A stretch of DNA of 64,000 nt from an uncultured Bacillota bacterium (GCA_963804645.1 CAWDRG010000011.1:1-64000); one strand, 5' to 3'. Shown: positions 455 to 26,089, numbered from the stretch's first letter. Notes: a model not told the origin generated them from the sequence alone. Translations and numbers: made by a program.

Positions 455-500
455 TGGTCGGGGCGGTCGGACTTGAACCGACGACCTTCTGCTCCCAAAG
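455..500 (-). repeat. att site: duplicated 3' half of tRNA-Pro (island boundary)
   Basis: TGGTCGGGGCGGTCGGACTTGAACCGACGACCTTCTGCTCCCAAAG is identical to 26013-26058. Confidence 0.95.
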
Positions 501-1743: not shown

Positions 1744-3106
1744 CGCGTCGCAGGAGACGCGTCAGCGTCCCGATGTCATCGAGTTCCTCGAGCCGGTCCA
1801 CCGCCGCGGTGATGGCGTCTCGGCGCTCCGGGGTCACCACGTCCTGAGTCAGCGTGGCAAACTTCTCGCGCAGCTCGGCGGACGCGAGCGGCTGTTGCGG
1901 CGCGCCCTTCGGGTAGGTGACGTCCCGACGATACGTGGCCGTCGGCGTTTCCACCTCGATGACCGAGCGGTACAGGTCCGGATATGTGCGATCCAGTTCC
2001 TGGTCCCCAATCACCTGCACGCGCTCAGACAGCGATCGAATCTCCGGGTCGGCTCGCTGATCGCGCAGAATATCGAAAAACTGGACGGCACCCCTGTGCG
2101 CCGCCAATGCCAGCACGTACTGCGCACAGTGCGAGCGCAAGGCGTTGCCGTCGATCACGTGGTACCCGCTCGCTGGAAACCGAAGGGTCACCCGGCGAAC
2201 GTCATGGGGCCGCACCTGCTCGGCACGAAGGATGTCGAGCAGGCCATCGAGGCCGGGGTGGATGAACGCGCAGCACGCGTACAACTTAAAGCACAGCTCC
2301 ATCACCTTGAACTGCTCGCCCAGCCCGTCGAACAGTGCCTCCGCATGCCATTGGCCGGTGAACGCCTGCCCAAGCGGGTACTTGCCTTCGAAGATCATCG
2401 GCGGCCCGCCAAAGCCGCACGACGCGAGATGCGCAGCAAGCACCCCGTGCCGCGACGCCAACCCCATGTTGAACGGACGCGAGTGCTCCGTGTCGTCGCT
2501 CACCCATGCGAGGAGACCCGACGCCTCGGTTCCGGCCAGCCCGAACGCGTGACGCAGCGCCGGTCCCCGGAGCCCGAACAGACGCCCCGCCGCCGCCATG
2601 GCCCCGAACGTCCCGGCGACGCACGACGGGTGAAACCCACGCGCGTACAGCGCCGCCCCGCCCAGCGCATAGCTCACGCGACACGCGACGTCGATGCCGA
2701 CAACGATCGCGGCGAGCACGTCCGGACCAGAGCGCCGCATCCGTTCGCCGACCGTCAGCGCGGCTGGCCCAACGATCGCGATCGCGTGCATGATCGCGCC
2801 CGGATGATGGCTCTCGATGTCGCAATAGTACCCGAAGGTCCCATTGACGAGCGCGGCGGTGGCGCAGTTGGTCCGAAGGTCAGTCCCAAACACCTGGGCC
2901 TCCGGGGCCCCTCCGGTCTCCCGGACGAACCGCTCCAAGACGGCGCCGATGTCGTAGCGCGACGACGTGGCGGAGAGCGCCGCGCCGAGGCCATCGTACA
3001 GAATGTCCTTCGTCCTCTGGATCACCGGCGCCGGAATGCGTTCAAACGGAAACGTCTCGACGAACTGCGCAAAGCGATCGGTCATGCCCGCGTGCCGGTC
3101 GTCCAT
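1736..3106 (-). CDS. MmgE/PrpD family protein (paralogue 3)
   Basis: AALVNGTFGYYCDIE, GFHPS, FKLYACCAFIH, YPKGAPQQPL...KF motifs. Confidence 0.9.
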   Translation of the reverse strand: MDDRHAGMTDRFAQFVETFPFERIPAPVIQRTKDILYDGLGAALSATSSRYDIGAVLERFVRETGGAPEAQVFGTDLRTNCATAALVNGTFGYYCDIESHHPGAIMHAIAIVGPAALTVGERMRRSGPDVLAAIVVGIDVACRVSYALGGAALYARGFHPSCVAGTFGAMAAAGRLFGLRGPALRHAFGLAGTEASGLLAWVSDDTEHSRPFNMGLASRHGVLAAHLASCGFGGPPMIFEGKYPLGQAFTGQWHAEALFDGLGEQFKVMELCFKLYACCAFIHPGLDGLLDILRAEQVRPHDVRRVTLRFPASGYHVIDGNALRSHCAQYVLALAAHRGAVQFFDILRDQRADPEIRSLSERVQVIGDQELDRTYPDLYRSVIEVETPTATYRRDVTYPKGAPQQPLASAELREKFATLTQDVVTPERRDAITAAVDRLEELDDIGTLTRLLRRDA

Positions 3107-3148
3107 CTCACGGCTCCTTGACGATCCGAACTCGAGCGCCGCGCGCGC

Positions 3149-4534
3149 TCAGGCGGGCCGCACTTGCAGCAGCGCGGCCACGTCGTTGATGTCCGAGACC
3201 GTCTCGAGATGATAGACCTGATCCATCAGCCGCTCCGCCGCGTCATGGGAAATCCGGGCTGCGGCCAGCCGGAGAAACTTCTCCTCCAGCTCCGCCCGTG
3301 TCATCGGGTTCTCACGGCGACCCTTGGCCCAGTCCACCCGTGCCGAAAACGTTCGGCCGCCGCGCGCGGTGACCTCGACCACCGCCGGCGACCCGGCTGG
3401 CCAGGGGTCCATCGCCGCGTCTCCGACAAGTGTCACCCGCTCGGACATCGAGCGGATCCGGGGATCGGCGCGCCGGTCCTGCAGGATATCGTTGGGTCCG
3501 ATCGTCCGGTTCACCGCGGCCACTGCCATGATGTATTGGGCGCAGTGCGACTTGAGGGGGTTGTTGTCGATCACCGGTGCCCGATCGGCTTTGACGCGGT
3601 GCACGATCGCGGTGATGTCGTCGGGCGGGATCCGGTGCTCCTCTACGATCCCCAGGAGTGCATCCAACCCCGTGTGGATGTCGCCGCAGCACGGATAGCG
3701 CTTGTAGCCTCCGGCGCGGGTGATCCACAGCGGGGATTCTCCCAATCCGTCGGTCACGCGCTCGACGTGCGCCTCCCCGGCATACGCGTCGTAGATACTG
3801 TACTTGCCCGGGTCGAGGATCGCCGGCGGCCCGCCGAAGCCCATCTGGGCGAGCAGGGCGGCCGTCACCCCGCCGCGCGCCGCCATGCCCAGGCCGAACG
3901 GACGGGAGTCTTCCGTCGGATCGAACACCCACGTCATCAACCCCGCCGCGTTCGTCCCCGCGACGCCCAGCGCGTTGGCAAGCTGCCGCCGATCGAGCTT
4001 GAGAATGTGCCCGGCGGCCGCCGCAGCTCCGAAGTAGCCAAACGTCGCGGACGGATGGAACGAGTGTGGATAGGAGTGCTCGGTGCGGCACGCTTCGCTG
4101 GCCCGGGCGCAGACTTCGTAGCCCACGGCCAGCGCCGTCATGAATGTCCGCCCGTCGGCGTGCTCCCGTTCTCCGACCGCGAGCGCCGCGGGCACCACGA
4201 CCGCCGGGACGTGCTGGCGCGCCACGCTGGCGCCTTCGATATCGGCCGCGTAGCCCATCGTCCCGTTGGCCAGGGCGGCACTCTCGCACGACGTTTTGAA
4301 ATCGCGGCCGATGACGGTGGACTCCGCGACACCGCCCGACCGACGCGCGAGGTCGCCGGTCAGCCGGGACGCGCTGTACTGGGGCGACGACCCTAAGAGC
4401 AGCGCGCCGAACGTGTCGAGCACAATCGTCTTGATCTCGTCGACCGCGGAGTGCGGCACGTCCGCGTACGTGAACGCCGCCGCGTAGGCCACCAGCGCCG
4501 CCGTGACGCCGTCCTGCCGGTTCGATACGGACAT
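3149..4534 (-). CDS. MmgE/PrpD family protein (paralogue 2)
   Basis: AALANGTMGYAADIE, SFHPS, YKRYPCCGDIH, KGRRENPM...EEKF motifs. Confidence 0.9.
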   Translation of the reverse strand: MSVSNRQDGVTAALVAYAAAFTYADVPHSAVDEIKTIVLDTFGALLLGSSPQYSASRLTGDLARRSGGVAESTVIGRDFKTSCESAALANGTMGYAADIEGASVARQHVPAVVVPAALAVGEREHADGRTFMTALAVGYEVCARASEACRTEHSYPHSFHPSATFGYFGAAAAAGHILKLDRRQLANALGVAGTNAAGLMTWVFDPTEDSRPFGLGMAARGGVTAALLAQMGFGGPPAILDPGKYSIYDAYAGEAHVERVTDGLGESPLWITRAGGYKRYPCCGDIHTGLDALLGIVEEHRIPPDDITAIVHRVKADRAPVIDNNPLKSHCAQYIMAVAAVNRTIGPNDILQDRRADPRIRSMSERVTLVGDAAMDPWPAGSPAVVEVTARGGRTFSARVDWAKGRRENPMTRAELEEKFLRLAAARISHDAAERLMDQVYHLETVSDINDVAALLQVRPA

Positions 4535-4559
4535 CGGATCTCTCCCTCCCCTGGTGCTC

Positions 4560-5921
4560 TCAGTGGTTGCCGGTCAGGCATCGCGCCAACACCGACACGT
4601 CGTCGAGCGCGTCGAGCGTGCCCACGAGTTCGATGATCTCCGCGGCGCGCTGTTCGGACACGATGTCGCGCGCCAGCAGTCGAAACTTCGCCTTGATCTC
4701 CGCGTCGCTGAGCGCGTTCTCCGGATCGCCCGTCGGGTAGTAGACAGCCTCGGTGAACTCGCGCCCATCCCGCGTCCGGACGGTCGTAATCCCGGCCCAC
4801 TGCTCCGGGAACAGTTGTTCCAATCCGTCGTCGCCGTGCACTCGCACGCGCGCCGCCAGCGCCGCGACGCGCGGGTCGTCGAGCCGTTTCCCGTCGAGCT
4901 GATCAACCTCGACCCGTCCGTCGTACGTCGCGACGGCCAGGACGTACTGCGCATTGTGCGAGGGGAGCTCGTTATTGTCGATGATGCCGGCCATGGACGT
5001 CGCGACCTTGGTCGAAATCTCGGCGATCTCGTCGCTCGCCAAGCCGTGTTCGCGGACGATCTTGAACAGGCCGTCCAACGGCGCGTGAATCTGGCGGCAC
5101 GCCGCGTATTTCTTGAGGCTCGTGCGCATGATCTCGAACCGCTGCCCGAGCGCGTCGGTCAGGATGTCTGAGACGTCGCGCTCGATCTCACTGAATGCCC
5201 GGAAGAGATTGTGCTTCCCATCGAGCACGTGCGGCGGACCGGTGAACCCCAACACCGCCAGTTGCGCCGCCGTCACGCCGTTTCGGGACGCGATTCCGAT
5301 CTGAAACGCCTTGCTCAACTGAGACGGCTCGGTCACCCAGGCCAGCAGACCGGACGCCTGACATCCCGCCAGCCCGAGCGCGTGCCCCATCTGCGGCGGC
5401 GCGAGCTGCAGGACTCGCCCCGCCGCGACCGTCGCCCCGAAGTTCCCGTCAATCGAGGACGGATGGAACGACCGCGCGTACAGCCGGACCGGATCCAGCG
5501 CGATGCCAACGCGTCCCTCAATATCGTAGGCGGCGACGAGCGCGGCGATCACCTCACGCCCGCTCAGGCGCCGCTCCTCGGCGATGCTCAACGCCGCGGG
5601 AACGACCACGTTCGCGACGTGGGCGTTCGCGGGATTGTAGTTATCGTCCAGTTCCAGGCAGTGCGACATCGTGGCGTTCGCAAAGGCCGCCGCGGTGGGC
5701 GACACCCGGAGACTTGTCCCCGCGACCGTGCAGGGGCCCGACTCCGCGAGCCTGTCGACGAATCGCGTCATGATCTTGCCGGCAGGGTAGCGTGACCCGG
5801 CCAGGAGCGTCCCGAGACAATCCAGCGTCACGTCCTTGACCCGGGCCACGACGGCCGCGGGAAGATCCTCGTATCGTAGCGTGCTTGCGTACTCGGCCAC
5901 CCGATCGGTCACGTGCGTCAT
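4560..5921 (-). CDS. MmgE/PrpD family protein (paralogue 1)
   Basis: AAFANATMSHCLELDD, SFHPS, KKYAACRQIH, PTGDPENAL...KF motifs. Confidence 0.9.
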   Translation of the reverse strand: MTHVTDRVAEYASTLRYEDLPAAVVARVKDVTLDCLGTLLAGSRYPAGKIMTRFVDRLAESGPCTVAGTSLRVSPTAAAFANATMSHCLELDDNYNPANAHVANVVVPAALSIAEERRLSGREVIAALVAAYDIEGRVGIALDPVRLYARSFHPSSIDGNFGATVAAGRVLQLAPPQMGHALGLAGCQASGLLAWVTEPSQLSKAFQIGIASRNGVTAAQLAVLGFTGPPHVLDGKHNLFRAFSEIERDVSDILTDALGQRFEIMRTSLKKYAACRQIHAPLDGLFKIVREHGLASDEIAEISTKVATSMAGIIDNNELPSHNAQYVLAVATYDGRVEVDQLDGKRLDDPRVAALAARVRVHGDDGLEQLFPEQWAGITTVRTRDGREFTEAVYYPTGDPENALSDAEIKAKFRLLARDIVSEQRAAEIIELVGTLDALDDVSVLARCLTGNH

Positions 5922-7295
5922 GCGATCCCTCCGCCCCCTCCCACACCTGCGAGTGCGAACGCCGAGAACAGACGTCCGACAAACTCGATGCCCGCGCAGT
6001 AGTCGTCCACCTGAATGCCCTCATCCGGTGAGTGAAATCGGGATCCGGGCGAGCCGATGCCGACATTGATCAAGGGGACATTGAGCGGCTGCGCCAGCTC
6101 ATAGTACGGCGCGCCGATCCACGGGGCGACCGGATAAATGACGGGCTCCTGGTGGTAGGCCTCGCGAATGGTGCGCGCGATGATGCCGACCATCGGATGA
6201 TCGAGCGGCACTTTCCCGGGGTGGCGCTCGCTGATCGGGCGCAAGGTAATCTGCTCGAATCCGTGCACGTCGAGGTGACGGCGGAGCAGCCCCTCCATCT
6301 CGCTCGGGCACTTGATTCGGCACGAGGCCGAACCGGACGACCCCGACCGCGCGCCGCGGCATCCCCTTGAGGGCGTCGAGCGTCCGTCCGGCACCGAAGC
6401 TCGACACCTCGAGGGTCGGCTCGAACAACAGACGCCGAACCGCCTCGCGACCGCCGACACCCAGCGTCAACCGCTCGAGACCAAGTCGGCGCTTCACGCT
6501 GTCGGCGTCGAACGACAGGTCGTCGAGCAGTCGCAGTTCGGCCTCAGACGGGCGCAGGGCATCGTCGTAGAATCCGTCGATGCGAACGCGCTCGTCGGGT
6601 CCCTTCATGCTCGCAAAGGCCCACACGATGTCCCACGCCGGGTTCGGCACAATCGAGGTCAGGCTGCTGTGAAACGTCTGCCGCGCGCCGACGCGCTCCA
6701 TTTCGAAGAGGATCCGCCCGCGACACCCCAAACTCATTGCCGGTCGACCCCGGTCGTCGCGGTCGCCGCCCTCGCCGAGCGCGGCGTCAGCCCGCAGCAA
6801 ATCCCGGTTCGCCTCCACCACTTCGCGCAGATGCGGGCTTCCCAGCTCTTCCTCACCGTCGATCACGAACTTGATCGTCAACGGGAGCGTCCCATGCACC
6901 GCCTGGTAGGCATCGACCGCGCACAACCGCGCCACCAGATCGCCCTTGTTGTCGCTGGCCCCCCGCGCGACGAGGCGTCCGTTCGCGATGGTCGCCGCAA
7001 ACGGCGGCGAGGTCCACGCCTCGAGCGGCTCCGCGGGAACCACGTCGTAGTGATTGTAGAGCAGCAACGTGCGCGGCGAAGCGCCGGGCAGCGTGCCGAT
7101 AATGAGCGGGTTGGCGCCCGCGGCCTGCCGGGTCGTCACATCGGCGCCAAGCGCCGTCAGCATCGATGTCAGACACGCGACCGATTCGGAAATCCCTTGG
7201 TTGTGGTAGGACACACTGGGGATCTGGCAGAGTGTCTGCAGCGTGGCGATGTACCGCTCGCGGTGTCGATCCACGTACGCGCCCAGTGCGCTCAT
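5918..7295 (-). pseudogene. M20/ArgE-DapE family metallo-amidohydrolase, +1 frameshift near 6307 (possibly sequencing error)
   Basis: YNHYDVVP, ARGASDNKG, DGEEELGS in ORF 6099-7316. The C-terminus (..GIGSPGSRFHSPDE..) is in ORF 5918-6460. Removing one C from GTGCCCGAGC gives continuous PNQVPSEMEGLL. Confidence 0.8.
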
Positions 7296-7346
7296 CGGAA
7301 CGCCTCCCGTCATCATGGCCGTGTCATCGGTGCCGCCCGCCAGTGG

Positions 7347-8225
7347 TCAGAGTCGGAGCCGGGGATCCAACGCGTCGTGCAATCCGTCGCCGAAGAGGTT
7401 CACCGCCAGCACGGTAACGGCAATCGCCGCCCCAGGGAACGTACTGATCCACCACGCAGTCTGAAGATTGTCACGGCCCTGTGCGAGAATGAGCCCCCAC
7501 TCCGGCGTCGGTGGCTGCGCGCCCATTCCGAGAAAGCTCAGCGTTGCGGCGGTGAGGATCGCCACCCCCACGTTCAGCGTGGCCAGGACCAGCGCCGGTC
7601 CATAGATGTTCGGGAGAATATGCCGCGCCGCGACCCGCGCTTCGCTGCACCCGCCGGCCCGCGCCGCCTCGACGTACACGTTCTCCCGCGTCGACAGCAC
7701 ACACCCGCGAATGAACCGCGTGAATCGCGGCGCTCCGGCCACCCCGATCGCCAACACAACGTTCCCCAAGCTTTTCCCGAGCGCGGCGGCGATGGCGAGC
7801 GCCAGCAGGAGCGTCGGCACCGCCAGCATCACGTCGACGCTGCGCATAATGACGACGTCGACCCATCCGCCACGATAGCCGCTCAGCAGGCCGAACACGA
7901 TCCCGGCCGACATCGTCATCGCGCTGGCGACGAGACCCACTGCGAGCGAGATGCGTGCGCCGGCCAGCACCCGGCTGAATACGTCTCGCCCGATCTCATC
8001 GGTCCCCATCCAATGCTGCGGGCTGGGTGATTCGAGTGCGTCCTCGGGAACCGGCCGCAGCGGCGAGTACGGCACGATGAGGGGGGAAAGGATCGCGGCG
8101 GCCACGAGGATCGCGAGCAGACCGGCGCCGACGACCGCGTGTCGATTGTGCCCAAGACTCCGCAGGGTTTCGGAGGCTCGCGACGACGAGGTCCACGTCG
8201 AACGCGAGATGTGGTCGACCGCCAC
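7347..8225 (-). CDS. Peptide/nickel ABC transporter permease (DppC-like)
   Basis: HWMGTDEIGRDVFSR, YVEAARAGG (EAA loop), PPTPEWG. Confidence 0.92.
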   Translation of the reverse strand: MAVDHISRSTWTSSSRASETLRSLGHNRHAVVGAGLLAILVAAAILSPLIVPYSPLRPVPEDALESPSPQHWMGTDEIGRDVFSRVLAGARISLAVGLVASAMTMSAGIVFGLLSGYRGGWVDVVIMRSVDVMLAVPTLLLALAIAAALGKSLGNVVLAIGVAGAPRFTRFIRGCVLSTRENVYVEAARAGGCSEARVAARHILPNIYGPALVLATLNVGVAILTAATLSFLGMGAQPPTPEWGLILAQGRDNLQTAWWISTFPGAAIAVTVLAVNLFGDGLHDALDPRLRL

Positions 8226-9155
8226 CTACGCCCCCCGCCCTTCCCGAATGCGGGGATCGAGATAACTGTACGAGATGTCGACCAGCATGTTGGCAAGGAC
8301 GTATCCGCAGGCCGCGACGACGAGGGTGGACTGCAGCACGGGGTAGTCGCGATAGGTGATCGCATCGATGATCAGCCGTCCGAGGCCGGGGCGGGCGAAC
8401 ACAGTCTCGACCACCACAGTACCCGACAACAGATTCCCGAGCTCGACTCCGATGATGGTGACCACCGGGATCAGAGAGTTCCGCAGGGCGTGCCGCAGGA
8501 CCACCGAGCGCGGCGCGAGTCCCTTTGCCCGGGCCGTCACAATGTAGTCCTGATGCAACGTCTGCACCAAACTGCTCCGCGCGAGGCGGCTGATGACACC
8601 CGCGCTGTACAAGCCAAGCGTCACGGCCGGCATGATCAGCTGCTGCCAGGTCGTGCCGGTCGTGACCGGCAACCACCCCAACCAGAGAGAGAACACAAAG
8701 ATGAGCATCAACCCCAGCCAGAAGCTCGGGATGGATACGCCCGACAACGCCGCCACGGTGCTCACGTTGTCGATCCAGCTGTGGGGACGCAGCGCGGCCA
8801 CGGTGCCGAGGGCGATCCCGAGCAGCACGGCCAGCCCCAAGCCGACCAGGGCCAGTTCCAGCGTGGCCGGGAGGAACTCCAGAATAAGGCTGCTGACCGG
8901 TTGATTGTACCGGATCGAACGGCCCAGATCCCCTTCAAGAAGCGCCCCCAGATCATCCGTGTACTGCCGCCACAGCGGCCGGTCAAGGCCGTACTCGTGG
9001 CGCAACGACACGAGCTGTGACTCCGATGCGCTCCCCTGCGAGATGAGCAGCGCCGGATCCGCTGGCAACAGATGGAGCACAGCAAAGACGAGTGTGTACA
9101 CGCCCAACAGGGCCGGCAGCGTCGTCAGTACCCGCCGGCCGACGAGCCTCACCAC
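8226..9155 (-). CDS. Peptide/nickel ABC transporter permease (DppB-like)
   Basis: GDLGRS, DYIVTARAKGL, RHALRNSLIP, DPRIR. Confidence 0.92.
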   Translation of the reverse strand: MVRLVGRRVLTTLPALLGVYTLVFAVLHLLPADPALLISQGSASESQLVSLRHEYGLDRPLWRQYTDDLGALLEGDLGRSIRYNQPVSSLILEFLPATLELALVGLGLAVLLGIALGTVAALRPHSWIDNVSTVAALSGVSIPSFWLGLMLIFVFSLWLGWLPVTTGTTWQQLIMPAVTLGLYSAGVISRLARSSLVQTLHQDYIVTARAKGLAPRSVVLRHALRNSLIPVVTIIGVELGNLLSGTVVVETVFARPGLGRLIIDAITYRDYPVLQSTLVVAACGYVLANMLVDISYSYLDPRIREGRGA

Positions 9156-9221
9156 GGCGGTGGTCGATATCGCTCGTGCTGCGTGGCCGGACCCCGACTG
9201 GCCCGCGGACGTGCCTGCTGC

Positions 9222-10895
9222 TTAGGCTTGGATCCACGCATCTTGGAAGTACGGATACCACGACCGAGCGTCCATGTGAAAGTTCTTCACGGGGGTCGCG
9301 GTGACCCATACAAAGAGCGTGATATAAATTGGCACGACGTATGCCTGCTCGAGGATCCGCCTGGTCGCTTGCGACACCAGCGTGAACCGCGCCTTGCGGT
9401 CCAAGGTGATATCCTGCTGCGCCAGAAGCTGATCGAGCGCCGGATCGTTGTTCATCGACCACGCAAAGCTGCCGATGTTCTTCGACGCAAACAGGTCGAC
9501 GAGGTAGTGTGGATCGCTCGCTTCAAACTCCCGGTTGATGACATGATACAATCCCTTGCTGCCCGCGACCGTCCGGTCGGCCGGCGTGCCGCTGATCAGG
9601 GTGGTCGAAAATCCGACGTCCTGGAGCATCGTGCACATCAGCTCTTTGTAGTTCTCGGTCTGGAAGCCGCTGGTAAACACATCCACGTGCAGCGGGGTGC
9701 TGCCCTTCATCCGGCGGCCGTCGGGACCTGGCTTCCAGCCGGCCGCGTCCAACGTCTCCTTCGCCTTCCCCGGGTCAAAGGTGAAGATGTGGTCCAGGGC
9801 GGGATCGTACCCATAGCTCGTCGGCCCGATCAGGTTCCACGTCGGGCGCGCGATGCCGGGATAGAACACTTTGACAATTGTATCCTTGCTGACCGCGTAA
9901 TTGATCGCCTGTCGAACCGCGAGCTCGTCGGTCGGCGGTTTCTGCACGTTGATGAAGTTGAACCACGTCGTCCCCGGAGAGACGCCTTCGTACATGGTGA
10001 ACGCGGGATCGCGACGCCACCCGGGGAGCATCCGGGGACCCGGCCACGCCTCAATCAGCAGCTCCTTCCGCCCGTTCATCAGCGCATCGCGCGTGCCCTG
10101 CTCGGGGAGGAACTTGAACGTCAGGCGCTCCAGGTATGGCGGGCCCGCGTTGGTCTTGCCCGGAAACGTCGTGCCCCACCGGTAGTCGGTGTTTCGCGCG
10201 AGCGTGATGTGGGTATCGCGCGCCCACTCGACGAACTTGAACGGGCCAGTCCCCACGAGGTGATTCTGAAAGTCCTGGCCGTACTTCTTCACCGCGGTGG
10301 GCGACGGAATCCCGAGGTACCCTTGGCTCAGCGAGTCGAAGATCGGTGCGAACGCCTCCTTCAGGCGGAGCTGCACGGTGAAATCGTCCACCACCACCGT
10401 CGAATCGTAGGGGCCCAGCAGCGACCTCGCGTACTGCGATTTGGTGGCCGGATCCACGCACCGGTCGAAGTGGAACTTCACCGCTGCGGCGTTGAATGGC
10501 GTCCCGTCGTGAAACTTGACGTCCCGGCGCAACTTGAACGTCATAGTCTTGCCGTCCTGGGAAACGTCCCACGACGAGGCCAACCCGGGATGGATGTTCA
10601 GGTCATTTCCCAAGTAGACCAGCGAATCGAAGACCATCTGGGTCACCATGGTTTCGGGCGGCCCCCAATACGACGCCGGGTCAAGCTGATCCAGCGTCCG
10701 GTACAACCCGACCGTCAGTTCCCCGCCCGGTCGCGGAGGGACCGTCGCGGGCGCGCTGGCCGCGCTCGCGGCCTCGGCGCGGCCCGAGAAGGCGGCTTGC
10801 CCCAGCATACCGAGCGCCGAGAGCGGCAGCATGGAGCCCATTCCGAGCGTAAGCGTCTTCACGAGCTTGCGTCGTGTCATGCCTGTCGCGCGCAT
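9222..10895 (-). CDS. Family-5 ABC substrate-binding protein with Tat-like signal
   Basis: MTRRKLVK N-terminus; PGLASSW, FKLRRDVKFHDGTPFNAAAVKF, VGTGPFKF. Confidence 0.92.
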   Translation of the reverse strand: MRATGMTRRKLVKTLTLGMGSMLPLSALGMLGQAAFSGRAEAASAASAPATVPPRPGGELTVGLYRTLDQLDPASYWGPPETMVTQMVFDSLVYLGNDLNIHPGLASSWDVSQDGKTMTFKLRRDVKFHDGTPFNAAAVKFHFDRCVDPATKSQYARSLLGPYDSTVVVDDFTVQLRLKEAFAPIFDSLSQGYLGIPSPTAVKKYGQDFQNHLVGTGPFKFVEWARDTHITLARNTDYRWGTTFPGKTNAGPPYLERLTFKFLPEQGTRDALMNGRKELLIEAWPGPRMLPGWRRDPAFTMYEGVSPGTTWFNFINVQKPPTDELAVRQAINYAVSKDTIVKVFYPGIARPTWNLIGPTSYGYDPALDHIFTFDPGKAKETLDAAGWKPGPDGRRMKGSTPLHVDVFTSGFQTENYKELMCTMLQDVGFSTTLISGTPADRTVAGSKGLYHVINREFEASDPHYLVDLFASKNIGSFAWSMNNDPALDQLLAQQDITLDRKARFTLVSQATRRILEQAYVVPIYITLFVWVTATPVKNFHMDARSWYPYFQDAWIQA

Positions 10896-11495
10896 ACGGA
10901 ACCTCCCGCGAGGTGTCCTCGGACTCCTTACCCCAGCTCTTCGGTTTGATCCTTGCCGATCCTTCCATTACGGATACGGGGCGGAGCCTCCAGCACGGAG
11001 GCGGCCGCGCCGCTTGGCTGCACGGCCGCGCCGGCGAGATTGCTCGGCAGCCCAGATGGACGGGCCCGTGGGGCTCGCCCGTCGCGACCCAGATGGCGCC
11101 CCGGACGGTGTCGGCGGTGCTCCGCCCGTCCAGCGTGTCGCTCCACTTCGTGATCGCGCCGAAAAATGGGTCAGTGGGAGACGCTGATGGGGGCCACGCG
11201 CGCTCTCTGGACGTGGCTTCGCACGATGATCCCGCTGTGATCGGAATGGCAGCGCCGCTGAGCCTGCCGGGTTCGTGCCAGCTCATCGACGCGCCTCGAC
11301 GTTGGTCGCGTCCCCCGTAAAGTCCACTGCACCTCGTGGCGCCGGGCAACGCACTTCACGATACCTCGCCGCGTCACGTCGGTTGCCTTGGGTTCCCCGC
11401 CACACCCGGTAGACTGTCCTCCGATGGCCCAGACACCTGTGCACTCCCCACACCAAGCGGTCCCGCCCTCCACGCGCCCTGCTCAAGGCCGAGTC

Positions 11496-11620
11496 GAGCT
11501 CCGTCCCGTATCAACTGGAGGCACTCGAGGCTGTAACGCGCGCCCATGCGCGTGGAGTGAGGCGGCTTCTGGTCGTACTGCCCGTTGGGACTGGGAAGAC
11601 GATCGTGGGCGCCTTTTTGA
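11496..11620 (+). pseudogene. N-terminal remnant of a superfamily-2 (DEAD/ResIII-like) helicase, cut off by the IS481 end
   Basis: With one C removed reads ELRPYQLEALEAVTRAHARGVRRLLVVLPVGTGKTIVGAFL (Q-motif + Walker A); stops exactly at 11621. Confidence 0.7.
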
Positions 11621-11633
11621 TGAACGGCCTGAG

Positions 11634-12444
11634 GTCGGGTAGCAGGGTGGCGCGCCGGTCAGGTTACCGTTAAGGAGCCTGACCACGGTTCCACCCCGCC
11701 CCCTATCATCCGGATAGCGGGTTTTCCCCAATCCGGCTGGAAGAGCACGCGCTCAGTTGCAGCGTTCCCGATCCTTCCCAGCCTGTACCTGGGGAGCGAT
11801 TGGTTTGCTGCAGCCTACAGCGTCGGTCCGGATCTTGGCGGTAGCCCGAGCGCGTTATCAGCACCCGCACCCTCTCCTTCTCCAACGCTGGCCTGCTCCC
11901 AGAGGCCCTTTGCTCCCGCTCCTTGTTATCGGAGCGATCATCGCTCCTACGGCCTCATGCGCCAGACTCTCCCCCACCAGTGAACTTCCCGAGTGAAGTC
12001 GGTTATATCACTGGCCTCACGGGTGAGAGCCCTTCCCCGCTTTGACCATCCACCCTTTGGATGTTGCCGCCACCCCTACGCCGGAGGGCTGGTTGCGTGC
12101 ACACGCCCAGCTTCTTCCGCAACCACACTGGCCTTCGTCCCCTATGTAGAAACTTGGCACCCTCATTCCCACTGTGGCGCTGAGCACTCCGTTACCGGAG
12201 CTCTGAGTGGGCCTGAATAACGACGCTGCAGTGTTCACTTCATGTTGCGGCCCCATCCATCGCTCGTCTCCTGGGCCACCGACCGCGGCCTTTATATCTC
12301 TGCCGGGCCGCCGAGACTTGTACGTCCGGGCTTCCGTCTCGCGAGTCACCTCCTTCGAGACGCCGGACAACACTACCGCGGCAAGTTGGGCGACTCCGCG
12401 GGTCGGACTCTCACCGACTGAGTGTATGGCTTTACGGGCTGCAC
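11634..12444 (-). ncRNA. ORF-less group II intron (811 nt)
   Basis: 5' GTGCAGCCCG...CGGTGAGAGTCCG. D3-like GAGGCCGTAGGAGCGATGA...GGAGCAAAGGGCCTC. D5 CAGCCGGATTGGGGAAAACCCGCTATCCGGATG (11707-11739, AGC triad). D6 ends CTACCCGAC. EBS1 loop ACATAG(G) at 12141-12147 is complementary to the 5' exon end (C)CTATGT. Confidence 0.92.
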
Positions 12445-12533
12445 ACATAGGTAACAGATTGTACCGGACACATGGGTAACACTTCCTCCTCCAAAATACC
12501 CCGTGTGAGGTAGCCAGGTCTAGTGTATAAGCG

Positions 12534-12983
12534 TTAGGCCGCTTCGACCGTGACCTTGTAGCCTAACCGTTCGAGCCGGTTGACTGCGTTGCGCACCACC
12601 GCTTCCTTCTTGCGCTCATCGTAGTAGTTGGCGCCCAGGTCCTCATAGGTGACACCGTCCCGCAAGACGTGATAGGCGATTTCCAAGATGTGGCGCCCCA
12701 CAGCGATGGCGGCCCGATTTCCCCCACGGCGGGCGGCGATCCGCCGATAGATGGCGCCGAGGTAGGTGGCCTTGGTCCGTCCTGCGGCCCGCCCCGCTTC
12801 TGTGAGGGTCCGCCGGAGGGTGGGGCTGCCTTTGCGGGTGCGCGCCCGGCGGCGTTTCCCAGCACTCTCATTGCTGCCTGGACTCATCCCCGCCCAGGCC
12901 GCCAGTTGGGCGGTGGTCGGAAAGCGCGTCATATCAGTGCCGACCTCGGCCACGATCACCTCAGCCACGTGTTGATTCACTCC
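12534..12983 (-). pseudogene. IS110 transposase, C-terminal half
   Basis: GVNQHVAEVIVAEVGTDMTRFPTTAQLAAWAGMSPGSNESAGK...AIAVGRHIL (Transposase_20-type, catalytic Ser motif). Confidence 0.9.
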
Positions 12984-12996
12984 CGGGACAGTGGCT

Positions 12997-15057
12997 TCAT
13001 ACTACACCTCCGGCAGTAGCCTTTTGGAGTGACGGTTTGAGGTGCACGGGGGTGGCGGTCCTCTGGCGACACGCCTCTTCGACCGCCGGAGAAAAAGGAA
13101 CACACAAGCGACCGCTCGTGTCGCGACGCGCTGCAAGCTTGCCTGCGTGGATCCAATCGTATACTGTCCATTTGCTGACCCCCAGTCGGCGGACAACCTC
13201 GCAGACCGTCAGCTCTCCTGGGCGAGGCTGAAAGGACGATGCAGGAATGTGGTAGGTGTGGCGGATCCAGCGGACAGATTTCACATCAAATGGCCGCCCC
13301 CCTTTCCGGGTCATTCCCGCCGTGTTGAGTGCGGTGACGATCTCATCATCCTGCTGCATCGCCAGCGCCCGAATCAGATCGACGACCGCACCCGGCGTCC
13401 GTTGAAGATCGCTGGCTGAGGCAGGGCGCTGGACGACGAGCTCCTCAGTCGCACCCGAGCGCCAGCGAATGCCGACGCCTACACGCGCACTGCCTGGAGC
13501 GGACCGTATCGTTACGTCCGCGACGAGCGCGCGAAGAATCCGCTTGCGGTCTCGGGCCGAGGTCGTAGGAGCAGCCCACAACGCGGGCACGTTGCGAGCG
13601 AGCGCCTCCAATTCTTGGCGCGATGGCAGCGGCGGCGCCTCCGCGCGCGCCCCCGCTAACGCGGTTTCCGCTTCCGCCAATGCGACGAGCGCAGTTTCCC
13701 ATCGTTGCTCCAGGCTCCGCGCCACCAGGCGGTTCTCCGGCTCACACTGATGGAACGCTCGCTCCGCCCGCGCCGCCTCATAGCGCGCCCGCTCCACCGG
13801 GAGTTCAGCGGCCCGGATGCGATTGGTCCGTCGTGCTGCGATCTCATCGGCGGCCTGGAGTGCCAGAGCAATCTGGTCTGTCGTGACCACGTCTAACATC
13901 CGCCGGGCCACGGCATCATCGATCACATCCGCCCGAACCGTGCGACACTGCGGAGTCTGGAGGTGCTCGACACGGGAATAGGAACAATCGTAGGCGGCCT
14001 TTCCGGAGGCATAGGAAGCATACCTCGGCGTCATCATCCGGCCACAGCCGCCGCACACGACGATCCCTTGCAGCAGCGCCTCGCCTTCCCGCGCAGGGCG
14101 TGCGCCTCCGCTCGTGTGGTTATGCGCCAACCGGTCCAGATTTGCAAGATAGGTCTCCCAGCTGATGTACGCGGGGTGATGGTGAGGGAGAACCACAAGC
14201 CATTCCTCCCGCGGAAGCTCTACTCGCTTCCGCCGAATTGAGCCATCCGGCTGTACGATGCGCCGGCATCGGTATCGTCCAAAGACGTAGGTCCCAGCAT
14301 AGACCGGGTTGGAAAGCATGCCAAGCACCCGGTAGTACGTGAGCCGGCCCCACCGGATCTCTCCCGTCCAGACGCCCCCGTGCACTCGCCGAGGAAACGG
14401 ACGCCGGCGAAAGATGCCCGCCGCGCCATATGCTGATCCGCTGGCCTCGAACGCGGCGAAGACGTCTGTGACGGCCTGCCGGATCTCCTCGTCCAAGTCC
14501 ATCACGGTACGGCCGTCCTGATCATACACGTAGCCGACTGGCAGCGGAACGCGTAATTCACCACGGGCCGCCGCGGCACGTTTCGACTCCTGCAACCGCC
14601 CGGCGAGGATATGAAGCTCTGCTTCGGACATTGCGCCCTTCAAGCCCAACAGGAGCCTGTCGTTAAAATGTTGCAGATTGTACACGCCGTCGGCATCGAT
14701 GATCAGCGTGTCCGTCAGGTTGCAGAATTCCAACAATCGTTGGAGGTCCGCGGAACTGCGGGCTAACCGCGAGACCTCCAACCCCAAGATGGCGCCGACC
14801 TCGCCCAGGCACACCCGACTGACGAGCTCCTGAAACCCCGCACGGGTGGTGCCGCTGCGACCGGACAGGCCCAGATCGGCATCGATCACGAGGATCTTGG
14901 ATGCTTCCCACCCCAATCGGGTGGCTTCCTCCGCCAGTGCATACTGCCGGGCGGTCGACTCGGTGTGTTCGCGCACCTGGGTCATCGTGGACTGTCGCAC
15001 ATACACGATTGCCAGACGCTCCCGGTGAGTGGGCGTGATCGTCCTCGCGTCGCTCAT
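12997..15057 (-). CDS. Large serine recombinase (resolvase + recombinase + Zn-ribbon + C-terminal HTH)
   Basis: AIVYVRQST (catalytic Ser), DLGLSG, EVSRLARS, LLQGIVVCGGCG...YDC, C-terminal excisionase-like HTH (EVVRRLGVSKWTVYDWIHAGKL). Confidence 0.95.
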   Translation of the reverse strand: MSDARTITPTHRERLAIVYVRQSTMTQVREHTESTARQYALAEEATRLGWEASKILVIDADLGLSGRSGTTRAGFQELVSRVCLGEVGAILGLEVSRLARSSADLQRLLEFCNLTDTLIIDADGVYNLQHFNDRLLLGLKGAMSEAELHILAGRLQESKRAAAARGELRVPLPVGYVYDQDGRTVMDLDEEIRQAVTDVFAAFEASGSAYGAAGIFRRRPFPRRVHGGVWTGEIRWGRLTYYRVLGMLSNPVYAGTYVFGRYRCRRIVQPDGSIRRKRVELPREEWLVVLPHHHPAYISWETYLANLDRLAHNHTSGGARPAREGEALLQGIVVCGGCGRMMTPRYASYASGKAAYDCSYSRVEHLQTPQCRTVRADVIDDAVARRMLDVVTTDQIALALQAADEIAARRTNRIRAAELPVERARYEAARAERAFHQCEPENRLVARSLEQRWETALVALAEAETALAGARAEAPPLPSRQELEALARNVPALWAAPTTSARDRKRILRALVADVTIRSAPGSARVGVGIRWRSGATEELVVQRPASASDLQRTPGAVVDLIRALAMQQDDEIVTALNTAGMTRKGGRPFDVKSVRWIRHTYHIPASSFQPRPGELTVCEVVRRLGVSKWTVYDWIHAGKLAARRDTSGRLCVPFSPAVEEACRQRTATPVHLKPSLQKATAGGVV

Positions 15058-15142
15058 GCGCGTTCCCCCCGGCGGCGAGCGCGGCCTCGAGCATGTTGGC
15101 CAGCGGCGCCACGAGTTCGCTCGTCGCGCCGCTGAACCCCAC

Positions 15143-15490
15143 TCAGGTCAGCTCCCCGCGGGTCAGCAGTTCCAGGTTGATCGCCGAGATCTCCGCCAGC
15201 GTCGCCTCGATGCGGGCGGTGAGCATGACCCGGCGGCGTACCGCCGCCGCCAGCGCCGCCGGAATATACAGGAGACGCCGTCCCGTTCCCCGCCGGACCG
15301 TCAGGAACACGTACGGACCGTGCAGCTCCCCCCGCGCGCACCGGCAGCCCGGTTTCCCACACCGCCGGTGCTGGATTACCAGCGCCCCGTGCATGACCGC
15401 CTCGAGCGTCGGGAGGCTGCGTGCCCGTTGGGTCCGGCGCGCGCGTAATTGCCTCGTGCTGAGCTTGGCGAGTGGTATCTTTTGTATCAT
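15143..15490 (-). CDS. DUF6788-like small basic Zn-binding protein
   Basis: GALVIQHRRCGKPGCRCARGELHGPYVFL...LYIP motif, typical of DUF6788 proteins next to transposases/recombinases. Confidence 0.75.
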   Translation of the reverse strand: MIQKIPLAKLSTRQLRARRTQRARSLPTLEAVMHGALVIQHRRCGKPGCRCARGELHGPYVFLTVRRGTGRRLLYIPAALAAAVRRRVMLTARIEATLAEISAINLELLTRGELT

Positions 15491-15519
15491 TGGTACCAAA
15501 GATATCACCTGCCGCGGGA

Positions 15520-15801
15520 AACGTCAAGGGGTGCGACAGCACCGCCACCACGCGGAGCACCTCCACCAGAATGGAGGCGGTGAGAGGGTGTGGCTCCGGA
15601 GGGGCGCCGCGATCGGTAAAAGCTTCTGGCAACGCAATACTGCCGGCTGGCCCGGCATCACAAATGTAGATACGTCCACGAGTGGCGTAGCGGCGTGTGA
15701 CCAGTATGGGAAGTCGCTGGTCCCTCAGCGGATGAAACGGATGGGTGACAACGAGGGAATCCGAAAGACTACTGACTGCACTCGTAGTTTGCGTGGACCG
15801 T
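15520..15801 (-). CDS. DUF5372 (Y4bD)-like ORF lacking a start codon in the integrated state; frame stays open to 15054
   Basis: ...SDSLVVTHPFHPLRDQRLPIL...SIALPEAFTDR; no ATG/GTG/TTG ahead of the THPFHPL motif, and an in-frame TGA lies just across the junction. Confidence 0.7.
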
Positions 15802-16575
15802 CGGGATCGTGTCGAGCTGCGTCATCTGGGCCTCGAAAGGGACGAGGCGGGCCGTCACCTCCGCATCCAGGGCCGCGATCTGCTGGTCGAGATGTCGAAT
15901 GTGCTCCAATTGGAGCCGCAGCATGAGGTGCTGATGCCGGGTGAGCCGCCCGCGCAATGCGTCGACCAACTGCTCTTGCGTGGCCCGCAACCGGGGATCC
16001 GCGAGCGCCGCGATGTCCTCAGGACTGCGCTGGCCCGTCGCGAGGGCCTCCAGCATCGCGCGGCCGGATTTGCCCAGAATGTCGGTCACCACCGACCCAA
16101 GTTTAATGTTGCCACCCTCCAAGACCTTGTGGATGCGGTTGGTTTCATCTGCCCGTTCGCTGACCATCGTGATGCGATATCGGATCAATTCTCGCAACTC
16201 TCGCTGCGGACGCGGAGGGATGAAGCTGGCCTTCAGCAGCCCGTGCCGCATCAGGTCGGAGATCCATTCCGCATCGTGCACATCCGTTTTGCGCCCCGGG
16301 ACGGCTTTCATGTGCGCAGCGTTCACGACATACACCGTCATGCCCGTAGCTTCCAACAGATTATAGAGCGGCTTCCAGTAGACCCCGGTGCTTTCCATGG
16401 CTACGTGCGTAATCTGCAGCGCCTGCAACCACTCCATTAGGAGGAGGAGCTCCGAGGTCGTCGTTCCAAAGGTCCGAGTTTCGCTGCTGGCCGGCACCAC
16501 CGCGTGGACGGTCACGGTTTTCTTGTGCACATCGCATCCTGCACACCGCTCGTACAGCACCTTCAAGTTCCCCAC
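15802..16575 (-). pseudogene. IS110 transposase, N-terminal half (DEDD RuvC-like domain)
   Basis: GTG start after GGAGG; CAGCDVHK, VAMESTGVYWKP, PGRKTDVHDAEWI. Confidence 0.92.
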
Positions 16576-16797
16576 GGCTATCCTCCCTGCGACGGTTCGC
16601 GGCGATCCGTATAGAGGAATTCTCCTCCGCATGCTCGCCCGAAGGCGGCGACAATGCGTGGTGCGCCAGATCGCCGGGGTCAGACTCCCATCCACGGGCT
16701 CTCGGCACCAAGGAAACTTCGACCTCTCGTCCCCCGCCGCAGTCATGTCCTTCGATGGGGTGGGCCGATTTCATTCTGCGTGGTGCTGGCTATGGCC
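16576..16797 (-). ncRNA. Candidate IS110 bridge-RNA-encoding non-coding end
   Basis: ~220-nt non-coding region upstream of the IS110 recombinase, the position known to encode bridge RNA; structure not folded here. Confidence 0.45.
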
Positions 16798-16830
16798 AGC
16801 ATGGGGGGCTCCCCGAAAGGGGGAGGTCGG

Positions 16831-18013
16831 ATGCCTTGGAAGGAGTGTTCGGTCATGGACGAAAGAATGCAGTTCGTCGCGCGTCGACTGGCGGGTGAGC
16901 CGATGGCGGAACTGTGCCGAGCGTTTGGGATTTCCCACAAGACCGGCTACAAGCTCTTCGAGCGGTATCAGGAATGCGGCCTTCACGGGCTCACGGACCG
17001 CAGCCGGCGTCCGTATCGCTACGCCAACCAACTGCCCTTTCAAGTCGAGAACTACATTCTCAATGTGAAGCGCGAGCACCCCAGCTGGGGGGCGCGGAAA
17101 ATTCGCGAGCGCGTGACGCGCCGGTTCTCGGGGATTCCCCATCCCCGCGAAGAGCACGATCCATGCGGTGCTGGATCGTCACGGCCGGGTGGAGCGTCGC
17201 GGTCGGATGCGGCGGCGGGCTCAGGGCACCCCCTTGTCGCTCGGGCACCGTCCGAACGAAGTATGGTGCACCGATTACAAAGGCGAGCTCCTGCTTGGCA
17301 ATCACCACTACTGCTATCCGCTCACGGTCACCGACCACGCCAGCCGGTTTCTGCTGGCCTGCGAAGCCCCCTCGTCCACCAAAGAACCCTACGCGGTGAC
17401 GGTGTTTGAGCGGCTGTTTCAGGAGCGCGGGCTCCCGGCCAACATCCGCAGCGATAACGGCGTCCCGTTCTCGTCCGCGCACGCCCTCTTTCACTTGAGC
17501 AGACTGGCGGTCTGGTGGTTACGCCTCGGCATTGGCATCGAACGTATCCAACCCGGCCATCCCCAACAGAATGGCCGGCATGAACGCGTGCACCTCACGT
17601 TGAAGAAAGAAGCCACCAAGCCCGCCGCGGCCAACTTCCTGCAGCAGCAGGTCCGGTTTGACAAATTTATCGACATCTTCAACAACGAACGCCCGCACGA
17701 AGCGCTGGGCATGAAATGTCCGGCGGAAGTCTACCACCCGTCCCAACGTCCCTACACCGGCTTGCCGGATATCGATTATCCGCTGCATGACAAGACCATC
17801 GTGGTCACCCAGTGCAGTCGCATCTGTCTGGACAACCACAAGATCAACTTCAGCCAGGTTTTTGCGGGACAAGCCGTCGGCATTAAAGAGGTGTATGATG
17901 ACATCTGGCTGGTCAGCTTTATGGATTATGACCTAGGGTACTTTGATCTAGAGACACGAGTGCTCGAACCGCTCGAAAATCCGTTCGGCCCGAAAGTGTT
18001 ACCTATGTCTTAG
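16831..18013 (+). pseudogene. IS481-family transposase, +1 frameshift at ~17140
   Basis: MPWKECSVMDERMQFV HTH N-terminus; rve core WCTDYKG / IRSDNG / QQNGRHER; ends KVLPMS within the right repeat. Removing one C from ATTCCCCATC restores GIPIPAKSTIHAVL. Confidence 0.9.
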
Positions 18014-18152
18014 GTACAAAGTGTCACCGATGTCTCCGGGCTGGACCTTTCCGGGACGCGCGGATCCCTGCATTCATATCGAAGGAATCATCGCTGCGTC
18101 GCTTCCTCGGTGAACCACCGCGAGTCCGGCGTCGCTCTCGGCGACAGGTGAG

Positions 18153-25538: not shown

Positions 25539-26006
25539 AGGCGCACGATCGACGTCTCCCCGACTCTGGTCCAGACACTCCTCGGGTTCCCCGCCGGTGA
25601 CGATCCGGAACGTGATTACGTCTTCCGCTCGCAGGCGGGCGGGCCGCTCGATCCCGACAACCTGGACCGGGCCTTCAAGCGGCACCTCGTGGCGGCCCGC
25701 GTGCCCGACATCCGGTTCCACGATCTGCGGCACACCCACGCCTCGCTCCTCATCGCCGCGGGCGTGCACCCGAAGGCGATCCAGGCGCGACTCGGGCACA
25801 CGTCGATCACGACTACGCTCAACCGGTACGGGCACCTGATGCCGAACGCGTTCTCCGGGGTGGGAGAGCGGCTCGACGCGCTACTCAGCGGGGGGCGAAC
25901 AAGAGATGAAGACGGCCCCATTCCGGCCTCGGTCCACGTCCCGGTTAAGGCACGTGGAAGGCACGAGACGCGGGAGCCGAAATCGGCGATCGTCGCAAAC
26001 CCTTGA
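25539..26006 (+). pseudogene. Tyrosine integrase C-terminal remnant
   Basis: RRTIDVSPTL..DYVFRSQAGGPL..IRFHDLRHTHASLL..QARLGHTSITTTLNRYGH; N-terminal part missing (stop at 25536). Confidence 0.9.
25941..25966 (+). repeat. Putative integrase arm-type sites (right end)
   Basis: CCGGTTAAGGCACGTGGAAGGCACGA, matches 635-660. Confidence 0.7.
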
Positions 26007-26012
26007 TAAATA

Positions 26013-26089
26013 TGGTCGGGGCGGTCGGACTTGAACCGACGACCTTCTGCTCCCAAAGCAGACGCGCTACCAAGCTGCGCCACGCCCCG
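26013..26089 (-). tRNA. tRNA-Pro (TGG), CCA encoded
   Basis: CGGGGCGTGGCGCAGCTTGGTAGCGCGTCTGCTTTGGGAGCAGAAGGTCGTCGGTTCAAGTCCGACCGCCCCGACCA folds as a cloverleaf. Confidence 0.97.

Follow-up and report, generated by a model that had tools for sequence, protein, structure and literature searches.

A stretch of 64,000 nucleotides from the genome of an uncultured Bacillota bacterium, which corresponds to positions 1-64000 of contig C11 of the 22-contig assembly G000 and is called the window throughout, carries five mobile elements nested in four layers. The outermost layer is a genomic island at a tRNA-Pro gene; the island contains an insertion sequence (IS) of the IS481 family, the IS481 copy contains a group II intron and an IS110 element side by side, and the IS110 element contains an element that encodes a large serine recombinase (LSR). 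All four inner elements were found at coordinates given beforehand, within window 11621-18047. The nesting of mobile elements is a known phenomenon, of which this nest is a well-resolved and rich example that amounts to more than chance; element boundaries, empty sites, pairings of guide and exons, and target sites that recur could all be demonstrated. The most interesting product of the analysis is the target preference of the LSR family: genes of mobile elements host 31 of its 34 readable sites (13/15 in genomes, 18/19 in metagenomes; raw counts without a genome-wide null).

Anatomy of the nest

Read along the plus strand, window 11621-18047 consists of the IS481 tip, the intron, the inner IS481 repeat with the 5' untranslated region (5'UTR), the C-terminal part of IS110, the LSR element, the N-terminal part of IS110 and the remainder of IS481. 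The outer 13 bp of the left inverted repeat of IS481 (11621..11633, plus strand) are separated by the 811-nt intron (11634..12444, minus strand) from the inner repeat and, as far as the IS110 junction, the start of the 5'UTR (44 bp in all, 12445..12488, plus strand), which are collinear with uninterrupted IS481 copies. In six related genomes (6/6), the tip TGAGCGGCCTGAG and its variants run straight into ACATAGGTAACAGG; the window has TGAACGGCCTGAG, then the intron, then ACATAGG. Since the relatives have the same tip fused to the inner repeat without interruption, IS481 truly begins at 11621, and removal of 11634-12444 restores the repeat exactly. A chance similarity of the left flanks in the window and on contig C15 was considered and rejected, both being the canonical IS481 tip. 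The right end ...CCGGGCTGGACC is common to all IS481 copies; compared by eye, the two ends of IS481 are collinear for about 45 bp and show a doubled ACAT.GGT.ACA motif, and their outermost 7-9 nt differ.

The remainder of IS481 (16809..18047, plus strand) comprises the second half of the 5'UTR hairpin, the transposase gene (start at 16831 or 16855, stop at 18013) and the right inverted repeat (~17994-18047). The transposase has the Pfam domains rve, rve_3, HTH_32, HTH_28 and LZ_Tnp_IS481, and it matches NCBIfam transpos_IS481 in two pieces (profile positions 2-92 and 102-284); its frame is split by an extra C at 17137, a +1 frameshift. An intact counterpart with a frame of 400 aa, 91% identical to the window copy, is present at C19:54680-55918.

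The IS110 element (12489-16808, minus strand) is located in the 5'UTR hairpin of IS481, and its two flanks together form both arms of the hairpin of uninterrupted IS481 copies. Its ends were set by relatives at 71-78% identity; in the sense of the element, the left end starts ...CCCCCCATGCTGG (16808 downwards) and the right end finishes ...TTTTGGAG (window 12489). In the window and in the relatives, the left flank and the right end of IS110 both terminate in AG (up to GGAG), with no longer duplication. The first-pass annotation had described this junction as approximate; in fact it is exact, since a core of 2-4 nt (AG in the IS110 sense) is common to both junctions. The N-terminal part of the transposase (15806..16575, minus strand, with a GTG start at 16575) matches PF01548 (4.6e-32) and NF033542, the NCBIfam profile of RNA-guided IS110 transposases (173 bits, profile 1-213). 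The other part of the gene lies in 12489..12984 (minus strand), a segment that holds the right end conserved in relatives and the C-terminal part of the transposase (12534-12984; PF02371, 1.4e-16; NCBIfam IS110 profile 232-342). The non-coding left end (16576..16808, minus strand), the start of which is conserved in relatives, contains a putative guide at ~16685-16692 that matches the left target flank.

The LSR element (12985..15805, minus strand) is a repeat unit of 2821 bp, GGGACAG...CGTCGGG, which includes a shared GGG, so that the net insertion is 2818 bp; a second copy, 99.6% identical, is present at C15:239299-242115, and the junctions could be read. Its genes point in one direction. 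A region similar to DUF5372 (15600..15749, minus strand; PF17342, 1.8e-8) lies in the frame 15057-15821 and is also found in locus L088. It is followed by a DUF6788 protein (15143..15508, minus strand; PF20586, 1e-21), which is a conserved partner of the LSR, and by the intact LSR of 686 aa (12997..15057, minus strand). The LSR contains the domains Resolvase, Recombinase and Zn_ribbon_recom and a C-terminal HTH_17; NCBIfam XisF and Ccr matches are below their cut-offs. The DUF6788 and DUF5372-like open reading frames (ORFs) are candidates, and only candidates, for a recombination directionality factor. Integration took place at ...ATCCC|GGG... within the IPGV codons of the IS110 gene, which is open on both sides of the element. 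Removal of 2818 bp puts the two IS110 parts in frame and restores IPGV, and 5/5 relatives are uninterrupted at the site (for example ...GACACCATCCCGGGGGTCAGTGAA... in L040). As the IS110 gene is otherwise intact, it was disabled by the LSR insertion.

The nest lies within an island of 25.5 kb, bounded by direct repeats of 46 bp in the same orientation that are 100% identical (455-500 and 26013-26058). The copy at 455..500 corresponds to the 3' end of tRNA-Pro and marks the far boundary; the second copy is the 3' 46 nt of the tRNA-Pro(TGG) gene itself (26013..26089, minus strand; ARAGORN, Rfam). Beside the tRNA, only the C-terminal part of a tyrosine integrase remains (25539..26003, plus strand; a frame of 155 aa, PF00589 profile 89-169), and no intact integrase is present in the island. 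As far as 26 kb the GC content stays at 61-68%; past that point it is mostly 70-74%. The segment at window 754-10967 encodes three tandem MmgE/PrpD paralogues, an ornithine cyclodeaminase-like gene, an M20 peptidase and an oligopeptide-type ABC transporter, and the island looks like a metabolic cargo island.

This anatomy bears out most of what had been proposed from the window sequence alone, namely a left repeat of IS481 split by a group II ribozyme, an IS110 element between that repeat and the IS481 start codon, an IS110 gene split by a serine-recombinase element, a surrounding tyrosine-integrase island, and the exact restoration of the host sequence when the intron and the LSR element are removed. 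It adds that the group II intron is a side branch within IS481 and not a shell around IS110.

Target sites of the large serine recombinase family

Protein-based locus searches yielded 19 genome loci and 44 metagenome loci with LSRs of 38-100% identity; a DNA search with the LSR element in 60 related genomes gave chance-size matches only. DUF6788 is located 5' of the LSR in 17/19 genome loci, and ATGAAGCCACYGT is a conserved motif of the right end. The unit measures 2819 bp in Solirubrobacterales genomes, where it is multi-copy, and related 2.8-kb elements are multi-copy in several genomes. Two features of single members should be mentioned. In four loci, a second LSR gene of 41-42% identity lies about 500 bp downstream; it is co-directional in L087, and L077, L089 and L090 have it on the opposite strand. 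The element of L076 splits cas3 between its HD and helicase parts.

The genome set, to which the window and C15 were added, comprises 15 distinct readable sites; loci without a recognisable end (L086, L092 and L093) or at a contig end (L085 and L091) were left out. Nine of the 15 sites are in genes of group II intron reverse transcriptases (L075, L077, which is the same locus as L090, L078, L080, L082, L083, L087, L088 and L089). One site each is in IS110 (the window), IS3 (C15), IS1595 (L084), an IS5/IS1182-like gene (L081, by flank similarity only), cas3 (L076) and an unknown host gene (L079). From the metagenome set, L114 (a flank of 3 nt) and L126-L149 (no recognisable end) were excluded. 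Its 19 readable sites include 12 in reverse transcriptases (9 by Pfam and 3 by eye), four in IS5/IS1182-like genes and one in IS3 (all by Pfam), one in IS110 (L107, with the same flank as the window) and one in an unknown host gene (L108); metagenome contigs through a 2.8-kb repeat can be chimeric, and the flanks of L107, L112 and L113 are discordant. The proposal that the serine-recombinase element targets other mobile elements thus finds support at the level of its family.

The sites in reverse transcriptase genes recur at one position. In the nine sites called by Pfam, RVT_1 begins at profile position 15-19, at the junction or a few residues from it. The 17 reverse transcriptase loci form 14 clusters (80% identity over 40 residues after the junction), and hence the same codon was struck independently many times. 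The host DNA at these sites, ...GG[CT]AT[CT]CC|GAC[GC]GT..., resembles the joined ends of the LSR element, and the IS110 and IS3 sites have only ...TCCC and a few further bases in common. With 9-62 occurrences of the short core in the genome, the LSR must recognise a longer site.

Within the genome of the window, the copy on C15 interrupts a gene of the IS3 family immediately ahead of ...PSGFYAW (placed by eye; an rve fragment lies downstream). Another IS3-like gene, at C19:221.8 kb, has the homologous site free of the element in this genome, but that site is occupied in metagenome contig L106 (HTH_21 and rve, Pfam) and in run X1, which indicates that the element moved recently in the population. 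A circular LSR joint was not seen among the metagenome contigs of four runs, the uncovered parts of which are uninformative. Two further loci of the genome resemble parts of the nest. At C19:221000-223200, the end of an IS110-like gene lies directly 5' of the IS3-like gene with the empty LSR site, and this may be another nest. At C9:1098700-1100869 (L017, L073), an LSR fragment of 81% identity is fused to an IS110 N-terminal fragment of 80% identity in the order found in the window, with about 500 bp missing relative to it; the fusion is preceded by a purine-rich stretch of low complexity, odd for a genome of 70% GC, and may be an older copy of the same nest.

These observations lead us to favour, with some reserve, the view that the 2.8-kb elements with a DUF5372-like ORF, DUF6788 and an LSR are an IS-like family specialised for other mobile elements. 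Their main site would be the GIPT-coding DNA at the start of the reverse transcriptase domain of group II intron proteins, and the transposase genes of IS110, IS3, IS5/IS1182-like elements and IS1595 would be secondary sites. As hyperparasites, they would disable their hosts and perhaps also travel with them. The preference looks new: an association of LSRs with group II intron reverse transcriptases was not found in literature searches judged by titles and abstracts, and a full-text search found no literature on DUF6788 or DUF5372 by name. According to the main text of PMC10083194, multi-targeting LSRs mostly carry DUF4368. Like the multi-targeting, transposase-like LSRs of the TndX/TnpX clade treated there, the present family uses many sites that resemble the joined element ends around a short core. 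Unlike them, the window LSR is without DUF4368 and belongs to a minimal element of 2.8 kb with DUF6788 and DUF5372-like partners, and the sites of its family are concentrated in mobile-element genes, chiefly at one codon of group II reverse transcriptases; the terms "reverse transcriptase" and "group II" are absent from that main text.

Site choice by the intron, IS110 and IS481

The intron matches Rfam RF02003 (domains I-IV) over the full model (1-138) at 12240-12420 on the minus strand, with 58.2 bits against a cut-off of 49, and the introns of the genome that carry an intron-encoded protein match the same family. The 811 nt contain no ORF with a Pfam match, whereas 12 RVT_1 genes are found elsewhere in the genome; thus, the intron is of the ORF-less type. 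Its 5' end is GUGCA and its 3' end is ...CUACCCGAC, with AC as the terminus; divergent relatives have the same GUGCA start and CUACCCGAC end with other exons. Metagenome contigs stop at 11636 and 12457, and one contig has a different 3' exon from exactly 11633. Because RF00029 gave no match, domains 5 and 6 (D5, D6) were placed by comparison with relatives: in the alifold consensus of three sequences, a helix like that of D5 carries a 2-nt bulge, D6 is long and leaves an A unpaired 7 nt before the end, and 8/42 pairs have compensatory changes. A DNA search in the 60 related genomes found one relative of 73% identity and one fragment of 53 nt only. One contig from a metatranscriptome library covers window 11898-12457, that is, most of the intron and 13 nt of the 5' exon, and may represent unspliced RNA or contaminating DNA.

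The genome contains five copies of the intron, which are 99.6-99.9% identical. All five lie at the same base of the IS481 left repeat, and all five left repeats of the genome are occupied; in the relatives, the genomes of which are without the intron, 0/6 left repeats are occupied. The IS481 hosts diverge by 9% and the intron copies by less than 0.4%. The copy on C15 is in a truncated IS481 host with the canonical tip, and three copies are in IS481 elements that are 99-100% identical to one another and have the variant tip CCTCCAG. The latter three have 3-bp duplications of their own, which surround tip, intron and IS, so that IS481 and intron seem to have been transposed or copied as a unit, and the group probably spread as a composite. 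With the trio counted as one composite, at least three independent intron insertions took place. The choice of site is explained by base pairing over 7 bp: exon-binding site 1 (EBS1; intron nt 298-304, ACAUAGG) pairs with the last 7 exon nt, CCUAUGU, which form intron-binding site 1 (IBS1). In a 75%-identical relative on C4, the aligned nucleotides are UUAGAGU, complementary to the exon of that copy, ACUCUAA. The claim that the intron targets a mobile element is upheld by this pairing and by the single position occupied in all copies, including the 9%-diverged hosts; splicing and retrohoming are predicted from the sequence.

A natural precedent for an intron in the repeat of an IS is already established, since in Sinorhizobium meliloti RmInt2 copies are located in the inverted repeats of ISRm17, and RmInt1 homes into ISRm2011-2 (PMC4615759). 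The window intron shares with RmInt1 and RmInt2 a natural homing site inside an IS (for RmInt2 inside the inverted repeat) and a target set by IBS/EBS pairing. In contrast to them, it has no ORF and needs a protein in trans, occupies only the left repeat, uses a host of the IS481 family, and has a non-canonical D5 and a GUGCA 5' end.

In the left end of IS110, a stretch of 7 nt between the conserved GAGCCCG and TCTGACCC covaries with the left flank across six elements: the match is 7/7 in three relatives, 6/7 in one, and 5/7 in one further relative and in the window. By analogy, this stretch behaves like the target guide of RNA-guided IS110 transposases.

Transposases of the IS110 family, such as that of IS621, are guided by a bridge RNA. 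The window element resembles this type in its DEDD and Transposase_20 domains, in having a short shared core only, and in a non-coding left end with a guide to the target flank. It differs in that its core is AG in its own sense, only the left-target guide was identified, this guide specifies a purine run similar to a ribosome-binding site, and the element was disabled by the LSR insertion. The sites of its nearest relatives are ...GGAG|GAGGAG..., sometimes just 5' of an ATG, and with such purine-rich sites the preferred target looks like a ribosome-binding site, not like IS481. Only 2/7 distinct related IS110 copies are in IS481 (the window copy and L042, the latter in the right repeat; the flanks were judged for IS481 only). 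The site in the window is therefore near-cognate and not specific for IS481, and the proposal that every element of the nest targets another mobile element does not hold for IS110. Two relatives were found broken at one position. In genome G002 (L052:1-91, L041), a group II intron (RF02005, 54.7 bits, truncated at the contig end) interrupts the IS110 gene immediately past the DVHK codons, and the G003 relative (L043) breaks at the same DVHK position.

Nor does that proposal hold for IS481, the relatives of which favour the 3' flank of tRNA genes instead. They lie 9-10 nt from tRNA gene 3' ends, to which the window copy is an exception. A tRNA-like 3' end begins 8/11 distinct right flanks (including L018, L019, L020, L021 and L014; C19:12611-12660), and complete tRNA-Arg genes (TCT, CCG, TCG) were found by ARAGORN at 5/9 loci. 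Target duplications of 3 bp (AAT, GGA, CGT, TGA, ATC) are present in relatives and in the three sister copies of the genome. In the latter (C11:128535, C19:16148 and C19:56776), the left tip CCTCCAG is closer to the right-end tip than to the canonical left tip. The IS481 that hosts the C15 intron copy (C15:243894-243930, L103) is cut inside its repeat at a perfect palindrome of 16 nt, CGGACACATGTGTCCG, which suggests a hairpin-mediated deletion. Other IS481 copies have been invaded as well: an IS256-family element (Transposase_mut) is at the start codon of one (C19:13868-15243; L015:3973-5157), and a DDE_Tnp_1 element is in the right repeat of a second (C11:130374-131863; L014:4477-5856).

Probable successive insertion and its alternatives

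The region is likely, and we hold this with considerable confidence, to be a record of successive insertions, each made by the machinery of the element itself. The island would have integrated at tRNA-Pro by tyrosine recombination, leaving the 46-bp repeats, and its integrase would have decayed later. An IS481-family DDE element would then have entered the island, and would later have lost its transposase frame and, through a rearrangement of the flank, its target duplication. In a third stage, the internal order of which we infer rather than observe, the ORF-less intron would have entered the left repeat by retrohoming, on the bottom strand between bases 13 and 14 and guided by the EBS1/IBS1 pairing, presumably mobilised in trans by one of the 12 intron-encoded reverse transcriptases of the genome, and IS110 would have inserted at the AG/CT core in the 5'UTR hairpin with its 5/7 guide match. 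Finally, the 2.8-kb LSR element would have integrated into the IPGV codons of IS110 by serine recombination. That the elements are active at the present day is likewise something we infer.

A number of observations weigh against this history. The window IS481 is without a target duplication (TGA on the left, TTT on the right), and its left flank is a truncated helicase-like ORF that has no continuation at the right. The missing duplication and the interrupted frame imply that one end of IS481 was rearranged or that the ends stem from two recombined copies. The first-pass annotation had named unrelated IS481 ends as a ground for rejecting the nest, and the two ends could indeed come from two copies joined by recombination; such an origin is without effect on the inner layers. 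An empty IS481 site was not found, neither flank being contiguous in six other genomes of the genus. The IS110 guide mismatches its site at 2/7 positions. Neither a right-target guide nor a donor guide was identified for IS110, short matches to purine-rich flanks being unconvincing, and the element is single-copy in the genome. Instead of GUGYG, the 5' end of the intron is GUGCA in the window type; two divergent relatives share this GUGCA, and a third has UUGCA. D5 was not matched by RF00029 at E up to 1 (searched at 11400-12700), and the AGC triad of the window copy has a G-A mismatch and a 5-nt loop, the relatives reading AAC. No full-length parent intron was found in the genome, where the sole match to an ORF-carrying intron is 30 nt long. 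Among the metagenome contigs of the four runs none bridges any junction of the nest, the uncovered parts again being uninformative, and the sole contig with the junction of LSR and IS110 C-terminal part, L107, has an unrelated left flank from C9 and is probably an assembly chimera.

The nest might instead reflect tolerance and not targeting, in that a dead IS481 in an accessory island offers neutral DNA where insertions survive that are purged elsewhere. The frameshift of the IS481 copy would fit such a sink, as would the unrelated IS256-family and DDE_Tnp_1 insertions at other positions of two other IS481 copies, the incomplete guide match at an IS110 site whose relatives are mostly outside IS481, and the 9 to 62 occurrences in the genome of the short LSR core motif taken alone. 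Base-exact recurrence, however, is not given by survival alone: the intron is at the same base in 5/5 copies, including those in 9%-diverged hosts, LSR elements are at the same reverse transcriptase codon in 17 loci, which represent 14 lineages at 80% identity, and the same site was used in two related IS3 genes. As the principal cause, a passive sink is thus unlikely, without being negligible; passive accumulation also contributes, as the unrelated insertions elsewhere in other IS481 copies indicate.

That parts arrived pre-formed, either IS481 with the intron or IS110 with the LSR element, and were copied from elsewhere is improbable for the window. Such movement has a precedent in the three IS481 copies at C11:128.5 kb, C19:15 kb and C19:55 kb, which are 99-100% alike including the intron, and a possible trace at C9:1098819-1100869, where the 81% LSR fragment abuts the 80% IS110 N-terminal fragment in the order and orientation of the window. 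Nevertheless, the window IS481 is 9% diverged from the trio and has a different tip, yet contains the same intron; no second copy of the window IS110 or of the full nest is present in the genome; and the IS110 gene is intact save for the insertion that disabled it. A wrong joining of repeats (five intron, two LSR and four IS481 copies) by the assembler is very improbable indeed. The metagenome contigs do break at every element boundary, and L107 pairs unrelated flanks, but each junction in the window is exact to the base and gives back an open frame or a repeat that is intact in relatives, and the assembly has only 22 contigs despite its many repeats. The IS110 halves occur nowhere else in the genome and thus were not borrowed from another locus.

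Successive insertion of the separate elements therefore remains the reading that we prefer. ORF-less group II introns, and introns nested in introns, were reportedly described by Dai and Zimmerly in 2003 and by Simon et al. in 2008. The present locus shares with these cases the proliferation with proteins of other introns and the homing of mobile elements into mobile elements; in contrast to intron-in-intron cases, four different recombination chemistries are stacked at it.

With the island included, the locus is a base-exact record of five chemistries that acted on one another: tyrosine recombination, DDE transposition, ribozyme action with reverse transcription, DEDD transposition with an RNA guide, and serine recombination. 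It allows two causes of nesting to be separated, real target choice in the case of the intron and the LSR family, and near-cognate or tolerated insertion in the case of IS110. The covariation of guide and flank provides a testable guide for this subgroup of IS110, and the LSR family is a source of compact serine integrases with a defined attachment motif in protein-coding DNA. If confirmed, the clustering of LSR elements at a single codon of group II reverse transcriptases (14 lineages or more) would be a natural system for the inactivation of mobile elements by another mobile element.

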